A DNA stretch of 64,000 bases from the sequence record MW394390.1. The stretch is one strand, 5' to 3'. Source of the stretch: Klebsiella phage vB_KpM_FBKp34. Made by a program: the position numbers and the translations under genes. The number at the start of each line of letters is the position of its first letter. Within the stretch, counting starts at the first letter, position 1. The notes under the pieces were generated by a model. It ran no database searches and was not told the DNA's origin. It saw only the letters and a list, made by a program, of their open reading frames with translations. Positions 378 through 48,922 of the stretch are shown here, piece by piece.

Positions 378-614
378 TTAATCAAGATTTTTACCTTCAA
401 CAGTCACACTACGATCATTTTTAGAAACATAGTAATCCGCAGTTCTATAATTCCATAACTCTAAAGCAGATTGAGGTTTGTAATCACCCTCAACTTCAGC
501 ACAGCAACCTAAACAGCTTACCCGATCAGTTATCTTAGTTTCTTTGTTACCTTTTGTCCAGTGTGCTCTTTCACCACAAAACGGGCAACCTTTTAAGATT
601 AATATTTTTGCCAT
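378..614 (-). CDS. Lar-family restriction alleviation / zinc-ribbon protein
   Basis: 78 aa; N-terminal LKGCPFCGE plus a second Cys pair (CLGCCAEVEG) and a conserved Trp-Asn near the C-terminus, typical of the Lar family. Confidence 0.5.
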   Translation of the reverse strand: MAKILILKGCPFCGERAHWTKGNKETKITDRVSCLGCCAEVEGDYKPQSALELWNYRTADYYVSKNDRSVTVEGKNLD

Positions 615-751
615 AATATACCCTAAAATCGTGAATCAAATTTAAGACACCTAGAAACGATTCTGAGAGGTTTTAGTTTAAAGTAACCCATACGGATATC
701 TTCTCTCTAAAAACCTCTCATATTGCTTTCTAGACCGCTAATTTTTGATTA

Positions 752-2104
752 TCAAAACATTGGTCCGGTTACACTGACGGGTTCAACAGCACTCCCTTCA
801 TTTTCTTCAGGCAAATCTTCCAAATCCAGTTCTTCATTTCGACAATGATTCTCTGAGACTTTGATATTAAATTTACTACTAATATCTACAGTAGACAGGT
901 CAGGAGATTTGACATAAGGCTCATTAACAACACTCAGAACTTTAACCTTAGTGAAACGAAGTTCATTAGATCTGTGAGCCGTGCGATCTTTAATTTCTGC
1001 AAGACACATCAACATAACAACGCCTTCACGATTTGCAAAGTAGTGGTCTTTAATATCTGTATCCTTGCAGAAGAATAAGCCAGATTGCTCATCTACGGCA
1101 TCTTTACCAAGTTCGTATAAGAAAGAATCTCGGTGAATAGATTTAAAGATATTTGGATTCTCTGTTTTATGCACCCATTTATAAAACATTCCACTAGTAG
1201 GCTCTTCTGGGTTTACATTTTCAAAGACTTCATTTTGAGGTGCAAACAGCAAAGCAATATTTAGTGGAACGGATTGACGAGCATATTCAGACCTGTAATG
1301 AGCTACATCTCCATCTCGATACCAACCACCATCTAATGGATTATCAGAGTGAATAAGACGAGCAAGCTGATGAACAGCAAGTGTAGGTTCATTTGGCTTT
1401 GAAATAACTTTGTTAATTTCTGGTTTACTTCCTTCAGAAGATTCATTTAAGACCTTCAGACCTTTTTCAAGATCAAAATCTTTATCATCCAGCTTGGAAA
1501 GCGCTGCCAAAGCACTGTTACCATAGAAACCACCAACCTGCTCAATAAACTGACGAGGTGTTTTAATTTCAAGCTGTGAAACAGTTAAAAGAAGTTTAAT
1601 CATTTCACTACGAGAAATTTGATAACCACGCTCTTTAAATTTATTTACTCGCAAAGCACTAACCAAAGGATATGCTGTATTTTTATTAAAACTCAGACGG
1701 CGCTGTGATAAATCACTAAAGAAGTCAGGATGATATTCTAGCTTTTCAGTTTTGAAATCATATCCACACATAGAGATTGTGAAGTCAAAAGTGTTGAAAA
1801 CATCCTGAAGATCTTCAAAATACTTAAAATAGATTAATTGAATTGGTACACTTCCACCAATCAACGTCACAGATTTATCAGTAATAGAGATACAAAAACG
1901 CTTGTCGCCGTACTCCGAAATATAATTCAGAAAGCGAACAAGATCAGCTTTAGATCGAAAATAGCAATCAACATCATTTACTTCTTTCTTGGTAAAAAGG
2001 GAAGTAAAAACTCCGCCTGCAATCATCATATTACACTCTTTGAAAAGAGCTTTTTCATATTTAAATGTATTAAGTACAGTCTCAATAACAAATTCTTTAC
2101 TCAT
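752..2104 (-). CDS. hypothetical protein, possible nucleotidyltransferase-fold (AGG...DVDCYF)
   Basis: 450-aa ORF; N-terminal MMIAGGVFTSLF...NDVDCYF resembles a G[GS]-x(9-13)-DxD NTase signature; large C-terminal extension of unknown function. Confidence 0.3.
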   Translation of the reverse strand: MSKEFVIETVLNTFKYEKALFKECNMMIAGGVFTSLFTKKEVNDVDCYFRSKADLVRFLNYISEYGDKRFCISITDKSVTLIGGSVPIQLIYFKYFEDLQDVFNTFDFTISMCGYDFKTEKLEYHPDFFSDLSQRRLSFNKNTAYPLVSALRVNKFKERGYQISRSEMIKLLLTVSQLEIKTPRQFIEQVGGFYGNSALAALSKLDDKDFDLEKGLKVLNESSEGSKPEINKVISKPNEPTLAVHQLARLIHSDNPLDGGWYRDGDVAHYRSEYARQSVPLNIALLFAPQNEVFENVNPEEPTSGMFYKWVHKTENPNIFKSIHRDSFLYELGKDAVDEQSGLFFCKDTDIKDHYFANREGVVMLMCLAEIKDRTAHRSNELRFTKVKVLSVVNEPYVKSPDLSTVDISSKFNIKVSENHCRNEELDLEDLPEENEGSAVEPVSVTGPMF

Positions 2105-13698: not shown

Positions 13699-14985
13699 AT
13701 GTCTGAGAGTAAAATGCTAATCATGTTTGATTCAAAGAATAATAACAATAAATTCTATGAAGCAACCTTAGATGACGTTGGAAATATTGCAGTTCGTTTT
13801 GGTCGGGTAGGTGGCGGGGTTCAAACTACCTCCTACTCTGGTGGTAAAAAGAAGTTTGACAGTCTTGTTGCATCTAAAATCAAGAAAGGTTATAAAGAAG
13901 CACAACTAGAAGCTGTCTCTGGTGAAACTGGGTTGACTCAAAAAGTTAACGTAGTAGACATTGCACTTAAGCAAATTGATTGTAAAGACGACACAAGTCG
14001 TAATCTTATTCAAGCAATTGCTAAAGCAAACATTCATAATATCACCAGTTCTACCAACATTAAATATGATGAAAAAGATGGTCTGTTTAAGTCTCCTTTA
14101 GGAGTTGTAAAGAAAGCTGCTGTGGAAGAAGCAATGATCCATCTTGGTAATATTGAATCCCTTTTGGATGAATATGAAAAGAGTGGTAAAGGTGAAGATG
14201 AGATCTTAACTTTAAATGATTCTTATTTTGTTCTTATTCCTAATAAAGTTGCAACTACACGTGATAAACGTCACTTGTTGTTTAGTCAGAAAAAGATTGA
14301 TGAACAACGTGAAATTTGTAAAGCACTTCTGGAAACCTTAGACCTTATTGAAGAACTTAAGAAGAATCAGGAAGATAAACCTAAAGAAGAAGTTGAAGTA
14401 GAAAAAATCTTTAATTTTGGTATCTCTCATGTTGAAGATTCTGCTACAATTGATCGTATTGTTAAGTACTACAATGAAAGTAAAAATGCCCAACACGGCG
14501 GTCGCATCATGGGTTCTAAGGTTAAAAATATCTATAAAATTAATCTTGGAAATCAACAAGCACCATTTGATAAAGCCATTACTAAGTATGGAAATGTTCA
14601 TGAACTGTGGCATGGAACACGTGTAGCTAATTTGTTATCTATTTTCTGTAAAGGTTTGATGATGCCTAAGCAATCACCAGGGCAGAAAGCTGGTGCAATG
14701 TTTGCAGACGGTATATATTTCGCTAACCAAAGTTCTAAGAGCATCAACTATTGTGACGGCGGGTACTGGACAGGCGGTTCTGGTAGTGGTAAGGTATACA
14801 TGTTCCTAGCTTCAGTGGCTGTCGGAAATGCTTATACACCTAGAGGTCCAACGAGTCAATTGCCTCCGAAAGGTTATCATTCATATTGGGCGAAGGCTGG
14901 TTACTCTGGAGTCAGAAATGATGAAATCATTGTTTTTGATCTGAGTCAGATTCGTTTAGATTACTTACTTGAAATTGAATATTAA
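13699..14985 (+). CDS. WGR-domain poly(ADP-ribose) polymerase-like ADP-ribosyltransferase (H-Y-E class)
   Basis: 428 aa; N-terminal FYEATL...AVRFGRVGGGVQ (WGR-like); catalytic region HELWHGTRVANLLSIFCKGL...MFADGIYFANQSSKSINYC...NDEIIVFDLSQIRLDYLL is near-collinear with the PARP1 catalytic core (H-G-S, Y-F-A, catalytic Glu at 14923-14925). Confidence 0.8.
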   Translation: MSESKMLIMFDSKNNNNKFYEATLDDVGNIAVRFGRVGGGVQTTSYSGGKKKFDSLVASKIKKGYKEAQLEAVSGETGLTQKVNVVDIALKQIDCKDDTSRNLIQAIAKANIHNITSSTNIKYDEKDGLFKSPLGVVKKAAVEEAMIHLGNIESLLDEYEKSGKGEDEILTLNDSYFVLIPNKVATTRDKRHLLFSQKKIDEQREICKALLETLDLIEELKKNQEDKPKEEVEVEKIFNFGISHVEDSATIDRIVKYYNESKNAQHGGRIMGSKVKNIYKINLGNQQAPFDKAITKYGNVHELWHGTRVANLLSIFCKGLMMPKQSPGQKAGAMFADGIYFANQSSKSINYCDGGYWTGGSGSGKVYMFLASVAVGNAYTPRGPTSQLPPKGYHSYWAKAGYSGVRNDEIIVFDLSQIRLDYLLEIEY

Positions 14986-15974: not shown

Positions 15975-18900
15975 ATGCACCACCCATACAAAATTATAAA
16001 ACGTGATGGACGCACTGAACAATTTGATGAACGTAAAGTTTACAATGCAGTATATCAAGCAGCACTAGCTAACTCTTCATTATCAATCACAGCAGAACAT
16101 GTTGCTGATCAAATCACAGAACACGTTATTAAAAATCTCAAAGAGAATAAGTCAGTCTCAAATGTTCAAAAAATGATTGAAGATTTCCTTATGTCTAATC
16201 CAAAGACATATGATATAGCCAGAACCTATATTGAGTACAGACATGATAGAGATAAAATTCGTGAAGGAAATGGGAAACTTTATAATGACATCTCTGGCTT
16301 CTTAGAACAAACAGCAGAAGAATTTACTCGTGAGAACGCTAATAAACCCAGCAATGTTGTAAACACGCACAGAGACCTCTTAGCAGGGATTTTAAGTAAG
16401 CATGTAGCATTAACTCAAATACTACCTAAAAACCTCTCAGAATGGCATACAAGCGGTTTTGGGCATATTCATGACCTAGATTATCTAATCAGTCCTCTTA
16501 CAAATTGTCTAGGAAGAGAAACAGCTTTTATCACAAAAGAAGGAACAAAAACGTTTTTCGATTTTAATAGTGGAGATGATGTCCTAGCCTTAACCCATAC
16601 AGGTACTTTTAAGAAGGCAAAAGTTTACAATTATGGGTACGGACTTTTAAATGAAATTACATTAAAACGTGGACGTCTAAGAAAAACAATACGTGCAACA
16701 GCTAATCACAGGTGGTTATTAGAGGATGGCACAGTCACTACTAACCTTAAGGTAGGTGATAAACTACTGAAAACTCCTACAACATATAATAGAGATTGGG
16801 CCACATTGAGCAACTCTGAAAAAAGAGCTTGGTGTTTTGGTTTTGGATATGCAGATGGTGTGAGTAGGATTACACAATGGGGTAATTTTTTTACTATACC
16901 CCTTATTGGTAAAAAACAGGATTATCAAGAATTATTTGAAGATGCTGGATTTAGAGTTACTAAAACAAAGTTGTACTCTGTAGTACATTTAGGTAAATTA
17001 GAAAAATTTTTACCTACAACATTAACCCATACAGAAAATGAGATTTTTTGTTTTGTTGATGGGCTTATAGCAGCAGACGGACATAAAAAATATAGACCTA
17101 AGCTAAATAAAAATATTCCAGCGTCGATTCAGATGACTGGAGAAGAAATAAATGACTTTATACAAACTTGGTTTGAACCTGCTGGGTATTATTTGGGGGC
17201 AACGTTAGATCTTTCCTGTCAAGAAACAAATTATGGTAAAAGAAACGGAAAAACTATAGAATATAAATTAAACCCAGAACAGAACCATATGGCATGGACT
17301 GTCACTGAAATTATCAACACAGGCAAAGAAGAGGAGGTGTGGTGTTTGGAGGTGGAAGAAGATGCAAGTTTTATTCTTTCTAATGGAGTAGTCACAGGTA
17401 ACTGTTGTCTTGTTAACTATCAAGATATGTTAGAAAATGGTTTCCATATTGGAAATGCTTTCATTGAAAAACCTAAATCAATTGGTGTTGCTACTACAGT
17501 GTTGACACAAATTATTCAGGCGGTGGCCTCTAGTCAATATGGTGGACAAACTTGCGCACATATTGATACAGGATTAAAACAGTATGTAGAGTCAACATAC
17601 TATAGGAATGAAGGTTTATTTAATCAATATAATATCTCAGAATATAAAGTAGATGCTTTTAGGAAAACAGAACAAGATGTCTATGATGCAATGCAAACCC
17701 TTATTTATCAGGTTAATACATTAATGAGTGTAAATGGTCAGTCTCCATTCATCACTATTAGTCTTGGTTTAGATACTTCAGAATTTGGTAGAATGATCAC
17801 TCGTAACTATCTAAAAATTCATAAAGAAGGTCTGGGTAAAGATAAAGTAACACCTGTGTTCCCGAAAGTGATTTTCTTTCTTGAAGAAGGTGTAAACATG
17901 CACCCTGATGATCCTAATTATGACCTGAAACAACTAGCAATGGAGTGTTGTGCAGAAAGAATTTATCCAGATTTTATTTCAGTTCCTAGAAATAAACTAG
18001 TTACAAAATCTTCAAAAGGTCATGTTACTAGCATGGGCTGTCGTAGCTTCCTTTCTTATTTTGCTACAGAACAAGGTGAGAAATATGATGGCAGATTTAA
18101 TCTTGGGGTAGTGTCTTTAAACCTACCGATGATTGCCAAGGATTGTACCACCAACGGAAAACTTTTTCTTGAAGAACTTTATAAGCATATGCAAACAGCA
18201 TATGAAGCACATATGCTGAGGATTAATCGCCTTAAGGGAACTAAAGCAAAACAAAATCCTGTGATGTTCGTTGAAGGAGCATTAGCTAGACTCGATCCTG
18301 AAGAAACTATTGACAAACTTTTTTACAAAGGTTATGCTTCAGCAAGTTTTGGTTATGTAGGGCTTTACGAATGTGTAAAAATCCTTTATCCAGAGGTAAC
18401 TTTAGACGAGTACAAGGATTTTGGACAAAAAATTCTTAAATTTATGTCTAATATGGCAGAAGATTATAAAAAGAAAACAGGTGTAGGTTTTGGTCTTTAT
18501 GGAACCCCAGCAGAATCACTTTGCTATAAGTTTGCTAATAAAATTAATGAGAAATTCCCAGGAACTATCGAGAAAGATTACTTGACCAACTCTTTCCATG
18601 TTCCAGTAGACCAAGAAGTAGACCCTTTTACTAAATGGAATGTTGAATCAGGGTTTGACTTTATCAGTTCAGGTGGTAATATAGGTTATGTTGAGACACC
18701 AAATCTGAAACACAACATGCAAGGACTGGAAGCATTAATCAACTATGGATATGAAAATATTCATTACTTTGGGATTAATCAACCTGTTGATAAATGTCTG
18801 AAGTGTGGCTTTCATGGAGAGTTTAAAGCAACAGCAGAAGGCTTTGAATGTCCTGATTGTGGCAATACTGAGGAAGGAACGATCAACGTGATTCGGAGAG

Positions 18901-18992
18901 TCTCAGGTTACTTATCTGCACCTAACAGCAGACCTTTTAATAAGGGTAAGATGCAGGAAGTTGTTCAACGTGTAAAACATACAAATTTATGA
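15975..18992 (+). CDS. nrdD: anaerobic ribonucleoside-triphosphate reductase NrdD carrying an intein
   Basis: 1005 aa; C-terminal glycyl-radical motif RRVSGYLSAP and Zn-ribbon CLKCG...CPDCG; ATP-cone-like N-terminus; 299-aa in-frame insertion with intein and LAGLIDADG signatures. Confidence 0.8.
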   Translation: MHHPYKIIKRDGRTEQFDERKVYNAVYQAALANSSLSITAEHVADQITEHVIKNLKENKSVSNVQKMIEDFLMSNPKTYDIARTYIEYRHDRDKIREGNGKLYNDISGFLEQTAEEFTRENANKPSNVVNTHRDLLAGILSKHVALTQILPKNLSEWHTSGFGHIHDLDYLISPLTNCLGRETAFITKEGTKTFFDFNSGDDVLALTHTGTFKKAKVYNYGYGLLNEITLKRGRLRKTIRATANHRWLLEDGTVTTNLKVGDKLLKTPTTYNRDWATLSNSEKRAWCFGFGYADGVSRITQWGNFFTIPLIGKKQDYQELFEDAGFRVTKTKLYSVVHLGKLEKFLPTTLTHTENEIFCFVDGLIAADGHKKYRPKLNKNIPASIQMTGEEINDFIQTWFEPAGYYLGATLDLSCQETNYGKRNGKTIEYKLNPEQNHMAWTVTEIINTGKEEEVWCLEVEEDASFILSNGVVTGNCCLVNYQDMLENGFHIGNAFIEKPKSIGVATTVLTQIIQAVASSQYGGQTCAHIDTGLKQYVESTYYRNEGLFNQYNISEYKVDAFRKTEQDVYDAMQTLIYQVNTLMSVNGQSPFITISLGLDTSEFGRMITRNYLKIHKEGLGKDKVTPVFPKVIFFLEEGVNMHPDDPNYDLKQLAMECCAERIYPDFISVPRNKLVTKSSKGHVTSMGCRSFLSYFATEQGEKYDGRFNLGVVSLNLPMIAKDCTTNGKLFLEELYKHMQTAYEAHMLRINRLKGTKAKQNPVMFVEGALARLDPEETIDKLFYKGYASASFGYVGLYECVKILYPEVTLDEYKDFGQKILKFMSNMAEDYKKKTGVGFGLYGTPAESLCYKFANKINEKFPGTIEKDYLTNSFHVPVDQEVDPFTKWNVESGFDFISSGGNIGYVETPNLKHNMQGLEALINYGYENIHYFGINQPVDKCLKCGFHGEFKATAEGFECPDCGNTEEGTINVIRRVSGYLSAPNSRPFNKGKMQEVVQRVKHTNL
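16506..17402 (+). mobile_element. intein with double-motif LAGLIDADG homing endonuclease inside nrdD
   Basis: begins SPLTN|CLGRETAFITKEG (block A-like, Cys1) and ends FILSNGVVTGN|CCLVNY (block G-like, terminal Asn, +1 Cys); internal FGFGYADGVS and FVDGLIAADGH LAGLIDADG motifs. Confidence 0.7.
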
Positions 18993-19001
18993 GGATAAAT
19001 T

Positions 19002-19253
19002 ATGACAACAGTAAGTAAATTGCCAGAAGTTGGTACTAAGGAGTGGGGTAACTTAGTGGAGAATGAGTTTGCTATAGTTGAAACCTCTAAAAGACCTGTA
19101 TCATCTTATGAAGAAATTATGACAGCGCTTGCTTGGTACTTTGGGGACGATGGGTATTATGCAAGTGCAGAAAGTATCTATGAGATTATTAATCAAGAAC
19201 ATGATCCTATTGAGACTATTGCAAAGGCATTGGATGACTATCGGGAGCAGTAA
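19002..19253 (+). CDS. hypothetical protein between nrdD and nrdG
   Basis: 83-aa ORF with RBS GAGGA. Confidence 0.45.
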   Translation: MTTVSKLPEVGTKEWGNLVENEFAIVETSKRPVSSYEEIMTALAWYFGDDGYYASAESIYEIINQEHDPIETIAKALDDYREQ

Positions 19254-19732
19254 TGAACTATTCAGGTTACATTTTTGGTGACTTGGTTAATGGAGAGGGA
19301 GCCAGGTGCTCCCTTTTTGTTTCTGGGTGTTCACAAGGTTGTGAAGGATGCTTTAACAAAGAGACATGGAACTATAACCATGGTCAACCTTTTACTAAAG
19401 ATTTTCAAGACAAACTGTTGAAAGATTTGAAGAAAACTTTCATTAATGGGTTAAGCATCTTGGGAGGAAACCCTTTAGAAAGAAAAAATTTTGACACAGT
19501 ATTAAAGCTTTGCTATTCTGTTAAACAAGAGATGCCAGAGAAGACAATCTGGTTATGGTGTGGGCAGACAATGCAAGAGATAAAAAATAACTTGCTTTAT
19601 GCTCAAATACTGGATATAGTGGATGTCATCATAGATGGGAAGTTTGTGAAAGACCTTCCTACAAAGAAACCTTTTAGGGGATCTGATAACCAAGTTTTAT
19701 GGAGAAAAGTTAATGGTAAGTGGGAAAGCTGA
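19253..19732 (+). CDS. nrdG: anaerobic RNR activating enzyme (radical SAM)
   Basis: 159 aa; CSLFVSGCSQGCEGCFN cysteine cluster and position directly downstream of nrdD. Confidence 0.75.
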   Translation: MNYSGYIFGDLVNGEGARCSLFVSGCSQGCEGCFNKETWNYNHGQPFTKDFQDKLLKDLKKTFINGLSILGGNPLERKNFDTVLKLCYSVKQEMPEKTIWLWCGQTMQEIKNNLLYAQILDIVDVIIDGKFVKDLPTKKPFRGSDNQVLWRKVNGKWES

Positions 19733-27281: not shown

Positions 27282-28358
27282 ATGTCATATGGTAATCTAT
27301 TCAATAAAACACAAGCTGCTGAAAATGTTGCAAACAAAAACTCTACAACATTTACTCAACCTGTAAAATCTTTACCTATTTTAAAAGATGCAGAAGGCAA
27401 TACTTATGCAATGGAATTGAGTGAAATTCAAAATTTTGGTATTGTTAAAAATTCAAAACAATCTGAAATTAATAATCAAATCTTATCTAAAACTCTTGTT
27501 GCAGATAGTGGTGTAATGGCACAAGGCTTTACTCAAATTATGGCTCTATCTGAAAAAGTAGATATTGGTTCTTTAACTGATGGCAAAGTTGGTTTCTTAA
27601 AAAGTTTACGTAATAAGTTTATTGATCGTAAAGCTGAAGTGAAAGCTCAATTTACTACTGTGCGTAAACAAATTACAGATGTCGCAGCTAACCTTAAGAC
27701 GAAACTTATTGAAATGGAAGAAGAAGGTAAGTGGTTAGAATCTATGTATAAGGCAAACCTTGAAGAAGTTCGTATGTGGGAGCAAAATAAAATTCTTGTT
27801 AATGATGCACTTGAACAAGCTGAGAGTTACCTACAAAACTTAATTAATACAGATGCCTCCGTAGATCAAATCGAAGAAACTCGAATGAAAGTTAATGCAC
27901 TAAGTAAACAAGCAGATAAAGTAAATAAAATGCACCAACTGAGTGCTATTGCTGCACCAGAGATACGTATGATGCAAGTTACCAACTTCAATAATGTGAA
28001 TAAGTTCAATGATATTCTTGAGTTAACAATCCCATACTGGGAAAAGAAAATGTCCCTGGCATTAAACGCAGAAAATCAGCGACAACAAATTGCTCAAGCA
28101 AAAGTTATGGATGATTTTACTAACAACTTAATTCAAGAAACCGCTAAACAGGTAGGACAAAATATGGTAGATTCGGCTAAAGCAAATCAAAGAGGGATTG
28201 CTGATGTAGATATTATGGTAGAAGCTACTAATGTCATTATCAATTCTATAAAAGAAGTTGTAGAGATTGATAAGAATGGTAATAATGTACGTAAAGAAAA
28301 TGCCAAAAAGATTGAAAAATCTTTGGTAGATATGCAGGATGCATTACGTAGTGTATAA
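27282..28358 (+). CDS. TelA-like helical protein, paralog 2 (call by context)
   Basis: 358 aa, a size typical for TelA/KlaB; coiled-coil-rich; paralogous N-terminus MSYGNLFNK. Confidence 0.4.
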   Translation: MSYGNLFNKTQAAENVANKNSTTFTQPVKSLPILKDAEGNTYAMELSEIQNFGIVKNSKQSEINNQILSKTLVADSGVMAQGFTQIMALSEKVDIGSLTDGKVGFLKSLRNKFIDRKAEVKAQFTTVRKQITDVAANLKTKLIEMEEEGKWLESMYKANLEEVRMWEQNKILVNDALEQAESYLQNLINTDASVDQIEETRMKVNALSKQADKVNKMHQLSAIAAPEIRMMQVTNFNNVNKFNDILELTIPYWEKKMSLALNAENQRQQIAQAKVMDDFTNNLIQETAKQVGQNMVDSAKANQRGIADVDIMVEATNVIINSIKEVVEIDKNGNNVRKENAKKIEKSLVDMQDALRSV

Positions 28359-40831: not shown

Positions 40832-43800
40832 TCACTCCCCGCCCGCGATAGCGGCTTCTATTCTCTCCAACCTTCTGCGCTGATACGCAGCCTCCATAGC
40901 ATTACATTCATTCATAACAAGCCGCCATTCACCTCCTGCTGGTATCGCTTCTTTGGTAACTCGCGATCCTGCCGGGCGCACAAGGACCTGCATCTCATCA
41001 GAGATCTTAACCCCCTGCTCATCGTACTGCGCCGGAATGGTTTCGTACTCATCGTCCCATGACTCCACCTGCTCAGGCTGGGCGTCCCATTCATTGCGTA
41101 CAAGCAACGCCCATTCGGTAGCGTCCTCCCCTGCGGCTTCGAATGCTTCAATAATGTCCTGAGCAATATAGCCCACATGCCAGCGCGCACTATCTTCCCC
41201 CTTCCTAGCAATAGCCCAGTCATACTTAAACCGCTTGATACTGATTGTTCCCCAGATATCAAGGATCTTATCCGGTATCCCTTCCCGTACAGGCTTACGG
41301 TCGCGGTCTGAAACAACAGTTACCGCATTCTGGGCGTAGATGTTTTTGACCGTATTACCCGGGGAGCCTATATCCCAGGTATTTGTCGCGCTGAAACCAA
41401 TATTCCCACCGAAGACAAGAGCCGAGGCGTTAAGACCAAGTGAGGTTCCGTATGCGTTTATATCGGCGGATTTAGTGGTGGCACCTCCGACATAAAATTC
41501 AACGGTACGTGTACTTGTCGACCCAGCGTTATACCCGAAGCGCATTGTAGTACCACGCAGGGTGAAACTGCCGTTTGCTGTCAAGGCGTCTGCGGTGTAG
41601 TCTCGGCGATAAGTACGCGCTGTTAGTGTCCGCTGGTTGATATTCAGAGTATCGCCAACAGCTCCAACAACCGCATCAAGGACGTACTGCCCGCTAAGAG
41701 TTCCATCAGTTTTCAGGTTACGCTTATGGATACGGGTTTCACCAGTATATCCAGTGGACGAACCTCCGGTAATATTCAGAGGAACCCCCATGAAAACGTA
41801 TGGCTTATATGCAGCTGGTACGTCTACGGTTGTCCGACTATTAGTGGAGTCAACCTCAACAACATTTACGGTAAACTCCTTGGCGAAGAAGGAACCAATA
41901 CTATTACCACCTTTGATGATTAACGGCAGATTCGTAAAGCCATAATCCTCGTAAACAGTGGTTGCGAACTTGTAATTTGTGTTCGCCCGCTGGTGTGCCG
42001 TCCAGGGGTAAATGACATCCTCGGGCATGAAGATACCACCACCAACCTTTTTGAACAGGTTATATTTAAACCCGTTACTTGGATTGACGTGGCCCCATAC
42101 ACATAAGTCTGACGTCTCAGGACGATAATCCAGTCCGACAGGGAATACCGGAATACCACCAGTGAACGCCTGAACGGCCTTGAGAATAATGGGAGTGGTG
42201 TCAGGGATAGTAAACTGCAACGACTGCTGACTACCCGCTGTACCTACACCGTCATTGTTGTTCCATTTCAAGTTCTGGATAATCGCCATCTTATAGCCAT
42301 TACCATAATCAATGGCCATTTCCGCGCGGGCAAAGAACAGGTTCTGGTTGTACCCGGCATCTGCGGAATTCTGGTCAATGTTGGCATTAGTCCAGATAGC
42401 GATGTTGGACAGGTCAAAACTTCCGGTCAGGTCTTTGTACCAGATACAGATATTACTGTGCATCGCAGGCGACAAAACTGGCAGTTGCAGGATGCCATTC
42501 GCCGCCATCAACCCATACGGAGAGAACATCTCCTTGGTGGTTTTGTGCCCGCGCATACTATCCACATCTGGCGGATTTGGATAAGTGGTGTTTGTGCTGT
42601 ACATCACACCATAGGTGCCGTATTTGAAGTCAAACCCGCCATGTGGGAATGCGCCAGTATCGTGTGTCGGACTACCGAAGCGAACGAAGTCAATGCCGTT
42701 GGTTGACGGGTACGAACCGTATCCGGCTGGCGGCACCCAGTTCTCATTAGCATCATAATACCCAAATGCGCCTGGCTCGAAAGTCAGGTACTTATAGGTT
42801 CGGTCAGGACGATACTGTGAACCGATACAGTCGATATTTAAACCGAAACCTTTCTCGTTGCCATCGTTCCACCACTTGTTAAGGATTGTAACGTAGGACG
42901 GGGTGTCTTCCATATAACAAGCCGAATAGACGGAACCACGAGCGGCGGTAGCGATGACGGATTTGTTCGGTTTGCGTTCAGTCGGGTTGTACGCCGGGAT
43001 ACTGAGATATGTCCCTGAACAATGGAAACCATGTCCAGTTTCGATCAAGTAATAATCACATTGCTGACCGCTTACGGATGATGTCCAACGCCCGTTATTA
43101 GAGATCGTTCCGCCAATCCACTGACACCAGTCGATGTGCAATCGAACACAACAGTAACGCGCCGTGCTGATATATAGATTTTTGAAGACACACCCGTAGA
43201 AGTTGCCAATCTTCTCTGGGAGAACACTAGATTTGTATGGGATGATATCGCTGGACATCACGCCATCTTCATCAATACGGACCTGCATCCCGACTAGGTT
43301 GACACGGAAATTTTCTACGCGGATGTCTTCAAAAGAACAGTACCACGGGTTAAGTGCCAGTATACCGATACCAGCAGTACAATCAGCATCCAGCGTACCA
43401 GGTACATGGTCGCCAATAATCTTCCCACCAGTCATCTGTGTGAAGCCCAGACTTACCGATTCCCAGTAGAGCTTGTTTCCGAGCGCCGTGTACACCTCTT
43501 CCACGTCTTCTACAGAGTGCTCAAATCCGTTAAGGTACTCACCAGTAACCTGGAATTTACGGGAGGCGCTGGCCTTGACGTAAATCGTGGACGCGCCGAG
43601 ATTGTAGATGACGTTGGAACGTAGCTTCGCAGCCTCTTTCCCGATACGCCACAACCCAGATGAAATATTGAACGTGATTACAGAGTAGGTGCTCTGGTCA
43701 TTGATGTTATTACCGGGCTGCATCCACAGCGGGAGTACGCTGATGATGCCGTTAACTGCCTGCCCTAAGCATACAAAATCATCAGTATCAGCTTGTGCCT

Positions 43801-44434
43801 CAGCATAGTCCGCGACTTCCTTGGCGCCGTTGGCTTTGGGGCTGATAATACCCATACCGACACCTACCTGAAGCTGGTATTCAACACCATTGGCGTTATA
43901 GATTTTTGCTTCAGTGATGACGTGAGTTCCGGCTTTTGAGGCGTCAGTGTTTCCAGTGGCTACCCATATGCCATCCCCGCCATCATTAGGTGTATAAAAA
44001 CCTCTTACACGTATTTCATCAAAAATACTAGGTAATGTAAAAATATCTATCGCAGAATCCACAGTAAACGTATAAGGAAACGAATAAAGTTTCCAGTTTG
44101 CGTCCCCTACTGGGGTATCTCCCATCAAAATTGGATTTGTGGCTGTGGCTGTAGGTGCATAATACCAACCTTTATTGATATTATCTGTGTCATAAACATA
44201 GAGTTGGTTAAAGACTGTATTAGTATTTCCTGGATTCCATTGAATCGGATTTTTGAAATAAAAATTATCAATTAAAGCTTTTCTTAATGTAGGGATATCA
44301 CCGCTCTCGGTGCTTACAACTGAAGTTGCATCCCCATTAATTACATCCCCAAGCTGGTTACTGGAGTATATTGTAAGATCTACAGCTTGGTCAAATGACG
44401 TAGCAGGGTATTGTGGAAAATTATCTGCCATCAT
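40832..44434 (-). CDS. tailspike/tail-fibre protein with beta-helix-like middle and C-terminal S74 intramolecular-chaperone domain
   Basis: 1200 aa; C-terminal VVSDRDRKPVREG...FKYDWAIARKGEDSARWHVGYIAQDIIEAF matches the endosialidase-type auto-cleaving chaperone; N-terminal 150 aa is AT-rich, the rest about 55% GC. Confidence 0.7.
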   Translation of the reverse strand: MMADNFPQYPATSFDQAVDLTIYSSNQLGDVINGDATSVVSTESGDIPTLRKALIDNFYFKNPIQWNPGNTNTVFNQLYVYDTDNINKGWYYAPTATATNPILMGDTPVGDANWKLYSFPYTFTVDSAIDIFTLPSIFDEIRVRGFYTPNDGGDGIWVATGNTDASKAGTHVITEAKIYNANGVEYQLQVGVGMGIISPKANGAKEVADYAEAQADTDDFVCLGQAVNGIISVLPLWMQPGNNINDQSTYSVITFNISSGLWRIGKEAAKLRSNVIYNLGASTIYVKASASRKFQVTGEYLNGFEHSVEDVEEVYTALGNKLYWESVSLGFTQMTGGKIIGDHVPGTLDADCTAGIGILALNPWYCSFEDIRVENFRVNLVGMQVRIDEDGVMSSDIIPYKSSVLPEKIGNFYGCVFKNLYISTARYCCVRLHIDWCQWIGGTISNNGRWTSSVSGQQCDYYLIETGHGFHCSGTYLSIPAYNPTERKPNKSVIATAARGSVYSACYMEDTPSYVTILNKWWNDGNEKGFGLNIDCIGSQYRPDRTYKYLTFEPGAFGYYDANENWVPPAGYGSYPSTNGIDFVRFGSPTHDTGAFPHGGFDFKYGTYGVMYSTNTTYPNPPDVDSMRGHKTTKEMFSPYGLMAANGILQLPVLSPAMHSNICIWYKDLTGSFDLSNIAIWTNANIDQNSADAGYNQNLFFARAEMAIDYGNGYKMAIIQNLKWNNNDGVGTAGSQQSLQFTIPDTTPIILKAVQAFTGGIPVFPVGLDYRPETSDLCVWGHVNPSNGFKYNLFKKVGGGIFMPEDVIYPWTAHQRANTNYKFATTVYEDYGFTNLPLIIKGGNSIGSFFAKEFTVNVVEVDSTNSRTTVDVPAAYKPYVFMGVPLNITGGSSTGYTGETRIHKRNLKTDGTLSGQYVLDAVVGAVGDTLNINQRTLTARTYRRDYTADALTANGSFTLRGTTMRFGYNAGSTSTRTVEFYVGGATTKSADINAYGTSLGLNASALVFGGNIGFSATNTWDIGSPGNTVKNIYAQNAVTVVSDRDRKPVREGIPDKILDIWGTISIKRFKYDWAIARKGEDSARWHVGYIAQDIIEAFEAAGEDATEWALLVRNEWDAQPEQVESWDDEYETIPAQYDEQGVKISDEMQVLVRPAGSRVTKEAIPAGGEWRLVMNECNAMEAAYQRRRLERIEAAIAGGE

Positions 44435-47437: not shown

Positions 47438-48922
47438 TTAAATCACTTGTTCAAACGAAACATTTTCTGTAGAGATGGCTGCAATTTCAGAAAACGCTGG
47501 AGTAATGTCTGAAGTAGAGAAACTTGAATCAGGATCAGATGCTTTTTTAGTTTGAACTTCTAAATAACTTAATCTTCCAAAAGTAATAGAACTAAAAACA
47601 ACACTTTGTAATTGAACATTAAATATAGTTGTCCCAATCTCAAAAGATGAAGCCAGATTAACAAAGTTATTTTGGATAACTGTTTGTTCTTCTGCTGTCA
47701 ATGGAGAATCATCTACTGTTCTGTATCTTACTCTAATACTATATTCAGTTTCACTAGCAGGAGTATATTTTATAACTTCAATACCACCATCTGGAAGCGC
47801 TTGATTATAACTGACTGTACCTGATGTCAGAGTATTAATAGGTTTTTTATTATATAATGTAGTTGCAATTTCTTGAGGATCACCACCTAGCACTACTGTA
47901 TTAAATGTAAATGCTGGGGCTTCTGGTGTATCATTAATAGTTGGATTATCATAGATTCTAACTTTCTCAACACCGTCTAAATCAGAAATAGCTTTATAAA
48001 TTGCTGGTCTTGTTGCAGCATTTGATTCATCAATAACATCGTTAAATCTTGCTCTATACTCTGCATCTGTTTCAACATCACGACCCGGATAAAACTCAGT
48101 AAAGTTACCTACAGCAAGTTGACCTGTGATTGAAGGTGTTATACTAACAATTCCACCAGGAAAAACATCATAAACCCCAGTCTCAGTTGCTGTTACAGGA
48201 ATAAGACTCCACTTAGTTCCTACGTTAACTGTTGCATAGAATTTAACAGAAGAATTTAAACCAACAGGATTGGTTAAATCTGTACTATTAAATCCTACAT
48301 ATAAAGTATTATTCTGAACAAAAACTTTACTGGTCTCAGATGATGCAACGTTAGAAGATATAAAAGTTGCCAGATCTGTCATCAATGTTGAAGAGTTTGT
48401 TGCAAAAGTCGCAGTATTTAAGGCTCCACTAACTACATTTGTAATATAGAATGTAATGGATGTCCCAGCGGCAGTCAATTGCGATTTAGTAACCGTGTAA
48501 GCAGCAATACGATCACGTAATGCTGTTTCTATAGATACCTGGTATGTTTGACCACTAGATGATCTAAAAGATGTTGACAGCGGAATACTTGTCGTCCATA
48601 ATGCAGTATTATTTGTCTTAATGAAGGCATAACCATTCCCGGCTGCACTTGTCTTTCTAAATATACTACGTCTTGAGAGGATTTCATCCAGATAAATACC
48701 TTCTGCACCATTCAAAGTTTGGCTATTATAAACAGCTTGCAATCCTTGCCAAGTATAGATATCCTGAAATGCAAAGATACTCAGAAACTGTCCTATAACA
48801 GAAGAGTCTCCTATGTTTACATCACTCCCAAATGTTGCCCTTGCGTTTTCATAATATGCAGATCTCCAGTCATCATAAGAAGGCATTATGAAACCGAAAT
48901 CCTTTAATCCAAAGTCACTCAT
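47438..48922 (-). CDS. baseplate J-like protein (P2 gpJ / T4 gp6 family)
   Basis: 494 aa; position after the gp25-like gene; N-terminal architecture typical of baseplate J. Confidence 0.55.
   Translation of the reverse strand: MSDFGLKDFGFIMPSYDDWRSAYYENARATFGSDVNIGDSSVIGQFLSIFAFQDIYTWQGLQAVYNSQTLNGAEGIYLDEILSRRSIFRKTSAAGNGYAFIKTNNTALWTTSIPLSTSFRSSSGQTYQVSIETALRDRIAAYTVTKSQLTAAGTSITFYITNVVSGALNTATFATNSSTLMTDLATFISSNVASSETSKVFVQNNTLYVGFNSTDLTNPVGLNSSVKFYATVNVGTKWSLIPVTATETGVYDVFPGGIVSITPSITGQLAVGNFTEFYPGRDVETDAEYRARFNDVIDESNAATRPAIYKAISDLDGVEKVRIYDNPTINDTPEAPAFTFNTVVLGGDPQEIATTLYNKKPINTLTSGTVSYNQALPDGGIEVIKYTPASETEYSIRVRYRTVDDSPLTAEEQTVIQNNFVNLASSFEIGTTIFNVQLQSVVFSSITFGRLSYLEVQTKKASDPDSSFSTSDITPAFSEIAAISTENVSFEQVI

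Follow-up and report, generated by a model that had tools for sequence, protein, structure and literature searches.

The anaerobic ribonucleoside-triphosphate reductase gene (nrdD) of Klebsiella phage vB_KpM_FBKp34 (MW394390.1) is interrupted by 299 codons. The locus raises the question of what this interruption is, how an active enzyme could be made around it, and whether it still moves between phages. The gene lies in a stretch of 64,000 nucleotides, here called the window, which is phage DNA and also encodes a primase-helicase and a family A DNA polymerase. In this study, we found that the interruption is very probably a genuine and probably still mobile intein, residing in the nrdD of a phage related to KP13-16 (Stephanstirmvirinae). 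The intein, 299 aa from Cys1 to Asn299, occupies 16506..17402 on the plus strand (precursor residues 178-476), as placed by translation, profiles, a structural model and an empty allele.

The insertion in nrdD and its empty counterpart

The open reading frame (ORF) at 15975..18992 (plus strand) encodes a precursor of 1005 aa plus stop and was identified as intein-interrupted nrdD from the ORF list, NF006732 and Pfam. The 1005-aa protein scored 798 bits against the NF006732 equivalog, whose cut-off is 657. The match was split at the insert, and precursor residues 475-1003 aligned to model positions 173-706. Pfam found NRDD (2e-162) plus Gly_radical and ATP-cone in the precursor, and the NrdD family models matched both flanks of the 299-aa segment and skipped the segment itself. 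The N-extein (15975..16505, plus strand, 177 aa) carries the ATP-cone at residues 6-94, aligns to T4 NrdD up to N78 and ends in SPLTN, with Asn at position -1. The C-extein (17403..18992, plus strand, 529 aa plus stop) starts with Cys+1 at 17403-17405 and holds the glycyl-radical domain and a C-terminal zinc (Zn) ribbon. By its family match, glycyl-radical domain, Zn ribbon and catalytic Cys, the host protein is a class III (anaerobic) ribonucleotide reductase (RNR), NrdD.

An earlier sequence-only reading of this DNA had proposed a 299-aa insert whose removal restores a NrdD of about 706 aa. Translation of 16506..17402 reproduced CLGRETAF...NGVVTGN between the flanks SPLTN and CCLVNY, and the spliced translation was 706 aa, exactly as long as its counterpart in Klebsiella phage KP13-16. 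The nrdD gene was compared by megablast with 50,697 phage records. KP13-16 (Stephanstirmvirinae) gave a two-piece match that covered all but the insert (69% query cover, 89% identity). Its annotated nrdD is 2121 nt long, as is the window gene without 16506..17402 (2121 nt), and the spliced nrdD aligned to it with zero gaps at 88.3% nucleotide and 90.4% amino acid identity. KP13-16 thus has SPLSN-CCLVNY where the window protein has SPLTN, the 299 residues and CCLVNY. The intein-less target of KP13-16 reads ...CTCAGCAAC/TGTTGTCTCGTT... across the junction, which is marked here and below by a slash. The sequence-only reading had looked to intein-free NrdD proteins for the insertion point, and both KP13-16 and T4 NrdD ran straight across the junction.

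Inteins are usually inserted at a catalytic residue of the host protein. The spliced 706-aa NrdD matched T4 NrdD (PDB 1h78) at about 580 bits, with N78-C79-C80 conserved and ...PLTNCCLVNY... of the window opposite ...PFTNCCLVDL... of T4. The junction corresponds to T4 Asn78/Cys79, and Cys+1 is the equivalent of T4 NrdD Cys79 and E. coli Cys175. This residue is the conserved Cys of the NrdD reductive half-reaction (PMC4493059). Since the +1 nucleophile is therefore a catalytic residue of NrdD, the precursor cannot be active. The alternative of a native NrdD domain or a lineage-specific insertion was rejected for this segment, and we regard it as extremely improbable. The 299 residues are missing from the NrdD of KP13-16, T4 (1h78), 9d3x and 8p23, all of which align straight across the junction; the NrdD family models split at the insert, and unrelated enzymes contain the same module.

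At the DNA level, the junctions read AAT/TGTCTA (16503..16511) and AAC/TGTTGT (within 17400..17411), both AAY/TGT. The boundary is ambiguous by one codon (3 nt) because the intein and the C-extein both start with TGT. Intein chemistry (Cys1 ... Asn/Cys+1) selects the coordinates 16506..17402. The nrdD frame is intact over 3018 nt, and nrdG downstream is intact as well. Compared with KP13-16, the ratio of nonsynonymous to synonymous substitution rates (dN/dS) of the exteins was 0.12 at dS 0.48, which argues that the interrupted nrdD is still under selection; within +/-150 nt of the junction it was 0.035. The G+C content is 34.9% in the intein, 35.3% in the exteins and 36.2% in the window, so that nothing in the composition of the intein hints that it arrived recently.

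In T4, a group I intron with I-TevII also interrupts nrdD, but at the RNA level, unlike the window intein. An Rfam gathering scan of the whole window gave zero matches, so that a group I intron like that of T4 nrdD is absent, in agreement with the protein-level element that had been proposed.

The intein family, its splicing domain and the initiating nucleophile

Relatives of the intein were collected with an exhaustive HMMER scan of 1.84 billion metagenomic cluster representatives, a word-indexed search having given only 3. The scan gave 900 matches at E<1e-3, 333 at E<1e-10 and 116 at E<1e-30. Among the best 150 matches, 127 cover the whole intein, and the conservation counts below refer to an aligned set of 123 unless 127 is stated. 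At least 13 relatives are mini-inteins of 128-180 aa without an endonuclease. Among the hosts of the relatives are NrdD, B12-dependent class II RNR, isocitrate lyase, a DegT-type aminotransferase and an AAA_24 ATPase. Asn precedes the intein in 126 of the 127 full-length relatives, and Cys follows it in all. The Asn at -1 holds even in unrelated hosts, as in the isocitrate lyase junction ..AYN/CSPSFNW. On these alignments, the family appears to require an Asn/Cys junction, or else to target it. As a separate observation, many of the metagenomic class II RNRs (1300-1770 aa; P0001, P0011, P0013, P0015 and others) harbour two or three inteins, and additional Intein_splicing, LAGLIDADG_3 or Hom_end matches lie downstream.

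Intein blocks were numbered after PMC2807308, and F:4 was located by aligning the intein with those of Ssp DnaB and DnaE. All blocks lie on the plus strand. Block A (CLGRETAFITKEG, 16506..16544) starts with Cys1 at 16506-16508, and its C1, T6 and G13 do not vary across the aligned family. Block B (GRLRKTIRATANHRWLL, 16671..16721) holds Thr65 (B:7), His68 (B:10) and Trp70 (B:12), as assigned by HMMER alignment to the Ssp DnaB intein. Block F (EVWCLEVEEDASFIL, 17334..17378) holds Cys280 (F:4, 17343-17345) and Ala287 (F:13), and block G (NGVVTGN, 17382..17402) holds Thr297 (G:5), Gly298 (G:6) and Asn299 (G:7). Block G is matched by TIGR01443 (intein_Cterm), with 21.3-24.5 bits against a cut-off of 15.6, and Pfam Intein_splicing matched the protein at E=1.2e-8. 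In a phmmer search against the Protein Data Bank (PDB), block B (ATANHRWLL) and block F aligned with the Ssp DnaB mini-intein. With blocks A, B, F and G, the +1 nucleophile, the terminal Asn and both profile matches, the assignment of the insert as an intein was upheld, well beyond what chance would give.

The intein was modelled with AlphaFold2 (AF2) from an input alignment of 28 diverse family members; a single-sequence run with a predicted local distance difference test score (pLDDT) of 30 was discarded. The model had a pLDDT of 95.2 and a predicted template modelling score (pTM) of 0.91. It showed a beta-rich N-terminal part (1-~98), two endonuclease repeats and a beta-rich C-terminal part. 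This confident model and Foldseek matches to many intein structures identify the Hint fold. The best Foldseek matches in the PDB were the TliVMA intein, PI-PfuI, PI-SceI and PI-TkoII (E 1e-8 to 3e-5), followed by E-DreI, mini-inteins, the WhiA LAGLIDADG domain, I-DmoI, I-OnuI and I-AniI. Like the window intein, PI-PfuI (1dq3), PI-SceI (1jva) and the TliVMA intein (7qss) combine Hint with a nested two-motif LAGLIDADG domain, and they are its best structural matches (E~1e-8). They are only 10-12% identical to it and larger (430-540 aa, with extra DNA-recognition regions), and their hosts are VMA, class II RNR and DNA polymerase. All three belong to class 1 and have the usual Asp at F:4 and His in the penultimate position.

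The sequence-only reading had pointed to a penultimate Gly in place of the usual His. Gly298 is indeed present, but it is not an oddity of this copy, since 116 of the 123 relatives share it. Thr297 is found in 122 and Asn299 in all 123, and the C-terminal Thr-Gly-Asn in 117 of the 127. Judged by this conservation, Gly298 is a family character under selection and not a lesion. The penultimate His is often missing from mycobacteriophage inteins, and in the Bethlehem gp51 (RDF) intein a change of the native Gly to His (G316H) raised precursor accumulation and worsened splicing (PMC5050341). Splicing without a penultimate His and the case of the Chlamydomonas ClpP intein are cited in PMC4031507. 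The Bethlehem gp51 (RDF) and Chlamydomonas ClpP inteins share the Gly at G:6, in host proteins unrelated to NrdD. At F:13 (residue 287, 17364..17366), the window copy has Ala, and the family has His in 69, Lys in 20, Gln in 11 and Ala in 4 of the 123, with Asn, Arg and Glu in some relatives. Ala at F:13 was considered as a sign of decay and rejected as a firm conclusion, the position being variable within the family.

Class 3 inteins have no nucleophile at position 1 and carry a non-contiguous triplet, with Trp at B:12, Cys at F:4 and Thr at G:5 (PMC2807308; PMC5222942). We found that the window intein holds this WCT triplet as Trp70, Cys280 and Thr297, which had gone unnoticed in the sequence-only reading. 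The presence of this triplet alongside Cys1 is more unusual than the penultimate Gly. At F:4, where the inteins of Ssp DnaB and DnaE have Asp, the window intein has Cys280 (VWCLEV opposite VFDLTV and VYDIGV). Trp70 and Cys280 are present in all 123 relatives, as are T65 and H68, and Thr297 in all but one. Cys1 and Cys+1 are also conserved, Cys1 in 123 of the 127 full-length relatives. The window intein was not filed as canonical class 3 because Cys1, a position-1 nucleophile, is present, where that class has no Ser, Thr or Cys. Of the 37 WCT inteins considered by Tori et al., only 3 had Ser1 or Cys1, and the authors did not settle how these splice (PMC2807308). The class 3 inteins of mycobacteriophage Bethlehem DnaB, Msm/Mch DnaB-1 and Bvi IcmO share the WCT triplet and the phage association with the window intein, and Bvi IcmO shares Cys+1 too. 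Class 3 inteins, however, have no position-1 nucleophile and reside for the most part in the P-loops of helicases or terminases, whereas the window intein has Cys1, an invariant Thr (B:7), Gly at G:6 and an RNR host.

The four other full-length relatives (P0062, P0072, P0114 and P0116) start with Pro (PGRRST.., PLPRST..). All four are class II RNRs in which the intein occupies the equivalent site, with FN before and CAF after it, at about residues 94-417, and all keep the WCT triplet, the Gly-Asn end and Cys+1. A neighbour-joining tree unites the four in a single clade that is nested among the Cys1 members; they are 49-51% identical to the nearest of these and 44-63% identical among themselves. 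From the pattern of retained residues, splicing evidently persists in this family without an N-terminal nucleophile. The retention of WCT and Asn in the Pro1 clade implies that Cys F:4 can initiate splicing. The Bethlehem DnaB intein starts with Pro as well. The keywords of the paper on this Bethlehem DnaB prototype include Proline (PMC2807308).

Splicing of the window intein may be initiated by Cys1 (class 1), by Cys280 (class 3) or by either, all of which its sequence allows. In the class 3 route, Cys280 would attack the Asn177-Cys1 bond to form a block-F branched thioester, and the N-extein would be passed to Cys+1, with Cys1 dispensable or only redox-related or regulatory. This route is possible, and we gave it somewhat less than even weight. 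The complete WCT signature (PMC2807308), near-invariant in 123 relatives, argues for it, as does its retention with the terminal Asn in Pro1 inteins that have diverged to 44-63% identity, and the absence of a penultimate His matters little in class 3 inteins (PMC2807308). Yet the presence of Cys1 in 123 of 127 relatives suggests that it is used, and Thr (B:7) and His (B:10) are invariant too, as in class 1. Moreover, canonical class 3 inteins nearly all have Ser or Thr at +1 and no position-1 nucleophile (PMC2807308; PMC5222942), and by structure and profile the splicing domain is no nearer to class 3 than to class 1 inteins.

As a tentative suggestion, which we hold to be rather doubtful, the family may be a natural hybrid of classes 1 and 3, in which the Pro1 clade lost Cys1 and kept splicing. 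If so, it would be a living intermediate of class 3 arising from class 1, in RNR genes, and this RNR origin would be independent of the helicase and terminase class 3 inteins. The route from class 1 to class 3 has been argued to be improbable (PMC7664689). A corollary of the hybrid would be that three or four clustered cysteines (Cys1, Cys280, Cys+1 and Cys+2) could redox-gate splicing, such that NrdD would mature only under reducing or anaerobic conditions. The family offers a convenient natural system for studying the redundancy of F:4 Cys and Cys1 and the evolution of class 3 inteins.

The endonuclease domain and probable mobility of the intein

A nested LAGLIDADG homing-endonuclease domain lies at about intein residues 100-247 (16803..17246, plus strand), as delimited by the AF2 model, Foldseek and a profile match to I-DmoI. 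Motif 1 (FGFGYADGVS, 16836..16865, plus strand) stands opposite GLIIGDG of I-DmoI and contains the putative catalytic Asp117 (16854-16856). Motif 2 (FVDGLIAADGH, 17052..17084, plus strand) stands opposite FIKGLYVAEG and contains the putative catalytic Asp191 (17076-17078). I-DmoI is a monomeric LAGLIDADG enzyme with two motifs. The profile of the 28-member family matched it at E=0.002 over profile positions 108-229, which include both motifs, and gave weaker matches to PI-PfuI, I-Tsp061I and I-MsoI. In the AF2 model, the domain consists of two alpha-beta-beta-alpha-beta-beta repeats, with helices 103-117 and 177-191 each ending in ..ADG. The order of secondary structures (H103-117/E/E/H/E/E, then H177-191/E/E/H/E) is that of the pseudo-dimeric LAGLIDADG fold. 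Both motifs, the I-DmoI match that spans them and Foldseek agree with the double LAGLIDADG endonuclease read earlier from the letters. The domain is compact, about 145 aa with the motifs 74 residues apart. Asp117 is kept in 120 and Asp191 in 119 of the 123 relatives, and the copy of this intein in relative P0013 contains a LAGLIDADG_3 match. The endonuclease region is missing from mini-intein relatives such as P0003.

A tblastn search of the phage collection with the intein gave six phage records, and three published phages carry a homologue in nrdD with 43-52% identity. The carriers at the same site are Morganella phage vB_MmoM_MP1 (KX078569; Straboviridae, two records), Vibrio phage vB_VorS-PVo5 (KT345706; Demerecviridae) and Vibrio phage V6Aob (PV454620); the other two records are unannotated gut-phage contigs. 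The nrdD genes of MP1, PVo5 and V6Aob encode 925, 1022 and 893 aa with inteins of about 275-300 aa. Their records leave the intein unannotated and name only an 'anaerobic NTP reductase' or, for PVo5, a hypothetical protein. These inteins resemble that of the window in the ..TN/C ... TGN/CCLV.. site, length class, blocks, both LAGLIDADG motifs, WCT with Cys1 and the penultimate Gly, at 43-53% identity. They differ in belonging to other phage families (one is unclassified) and in having His at F:13 instead of Ala. The window phage was the only Stephanstirmvirinae-like carrier of the intein found in the 50,697 records. The window gene would be correctly annotated as an intein-containing nrdD whose mature product has 706 aa, and the MP1, PVo5 and V6Aob copies likewise as intein-containing.

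Already in 2013, inteins had been described in the nrdD of two other phages, Clostridium phage c-st and Lactococcus phage 949 (PMC3653736). They were not retrieved from the phage collection by tblastn with the window intein at E<=1e-3, and they are therefore not close relatives and belong to other families. In gut jumbo phages, nrdD is frequently fragmented by insertions of intein domains (PMC12880540). Phage nrdD inteins are thus already known, and the traits of the window copy are variations within established intein biology. The features of its family (WCT with Cys1 and Cys+1, Gly at G:6, a near-absolute Asn at -1 and the nested Pro1 clade) seem to be under-described. The family is large, with hundreds of metagenomic clusters, and its features are worth a bench test.

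The events that we infer for splicing and DNA cleavage are as follows. Translation would yield the 1005-aa precursor with its active site split between Asn177 and the catalytic Cys. The Hint domain (intein residues 1-~98 and ~250-299) would then excise the intein and join SPLTN to CCLVNY, giving the 706-aa NrdD with the equivalent of T4 Cys79 restored. The N-terminal junction would be attacked by Cys1 in the class 1 route or by block-F Cys280 in the class 3 route. The N-extein would move to Cys+1, Asn299 would cyclise without a penultimate His, and an S-to-N shift would make the peptide bond. The LAGLIDADG endonuclease (Asp117, Asp191) would cut the intein-less nrdD of co-infecting phages at the AAC/TGT site, and recombinational repair of the cut allele would copy the intein in (homing). 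The window copy keeps every invariant residue of the family. It is probably competent in splicing, for which the extein dN/dS of 0.12 gives indirect support, and we lean, with less assurance, towards an active endonuclease. The polymorphism between exteins that are 90% identical, the scatter across phage families and hosts and the endonuclease-less derivatives are together the expected footprint of a homing element. From this footprint, we infer recent transfer of the intein.

Several points weigh against a functional and mobile intein. The Pfam Intein_splicing match, at 35.3 bits, lies 0.5 under the gathering score of 35.8, and Pfam LAGLIDADG_1/2/3 and Hom_end gave no match to the window protein at E<1. 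The window copy has neither of the usual histidines of Asn cyclisation (Ala at F:13, Gly at G:6), which makes it an extreme test case for this step. Between phages, the inteins (43-53% identity) and the exteins (40-47%) have diverged to a similar degree, and horizontal transfer is therefore unproven by those phage pairs. No near-identical intein copy in a different extein was found in the gene-position collection (exact 1005-aa precursor) or in a peptide-pattern scan of IMG/VR. In addition, no published splicing or cleavage experiment on any member of this family was found.

The absence of both helper residues would fit an intein that is splicing-defective or decaying, leaving nrdD dead and the element in place since precise deletion is rare. 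NrdD is needed only under anaerobiosis and is conditionally dispensable, which would allow such a state. Non-functional inteins are documented (PMC3196547). We consider decay improbable: the reading frame is unbroken over its 3018 nt, no invariant residue of the family has been lost, F:13 differs among the relatives, the extein dN/dS is as low as 0.035 near the junction, and nrdG is intact.

It is also conceivable, though in our judgement rather unlikely, that splicing works while the endonuclease is inactive, so that the intein is now inherited only vertically. The small domain that Pfam LAGLIDADG models miss, the similar divergence of inteins and exteins and the mini-inteins, which show that the family does lose its endonuclease, are consistent with this. 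Against it, both motif aspartates are kept here and in about 97% of the relatives, the domain was modelled at a pLDDT of ~90-97 with the canonical fold, and the closest extein relative, at 90% amino acid identity, has no intein. For the intein that splices and still homes, which we prefer, the compact endonuclease and the empty KP13-16 site would provide a ready-made endonuclease/target pair.

Genes around nrdD

The nrdG gene for the NrdD-activating enzyme lies outside the intein at 19253..19732 (plus strand). Its product contains the radical-SAM motif CSQGCEGC, and the KP13-16 gene in its place, equal in length, is annotated nrdG. The gap between nrdD and nrdG (19002..19253, plus strand) holds one 83-aa ORF, and that of KP13-16 holds two (96 and 51 aa). 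This difference amounts to a small indel or a replacement in phages that are otherwise syntenic.

Two genes upstream of nrdD, at 13699..14985 (plus strand), a 428-aa protein was found with WGR, PARP_reg and PARP catalytic domains (Pfam E = 3e-7, 3e-8 and 1e-24). The KP13-16 protein at this position (573..1862 of its extracted locus) carries no annotation beyond hypothetical. A phage protein with a full eukaryote-like PARP architecture deserves a separate study.

No tRNAs were found in the window. A TelA-like (toxic anion resistance) protein is encoded at 27282..28358 (plus strand; Pfam E=1e-34), in a phage early or metabolic region. A 1200-aa tail fibre or spike with a C-terminal Peptidase_S74 intramolecular chaperone domain is encoded at 40832..44434 (minus strand), and a baseplate J homologue at 47438..48922.

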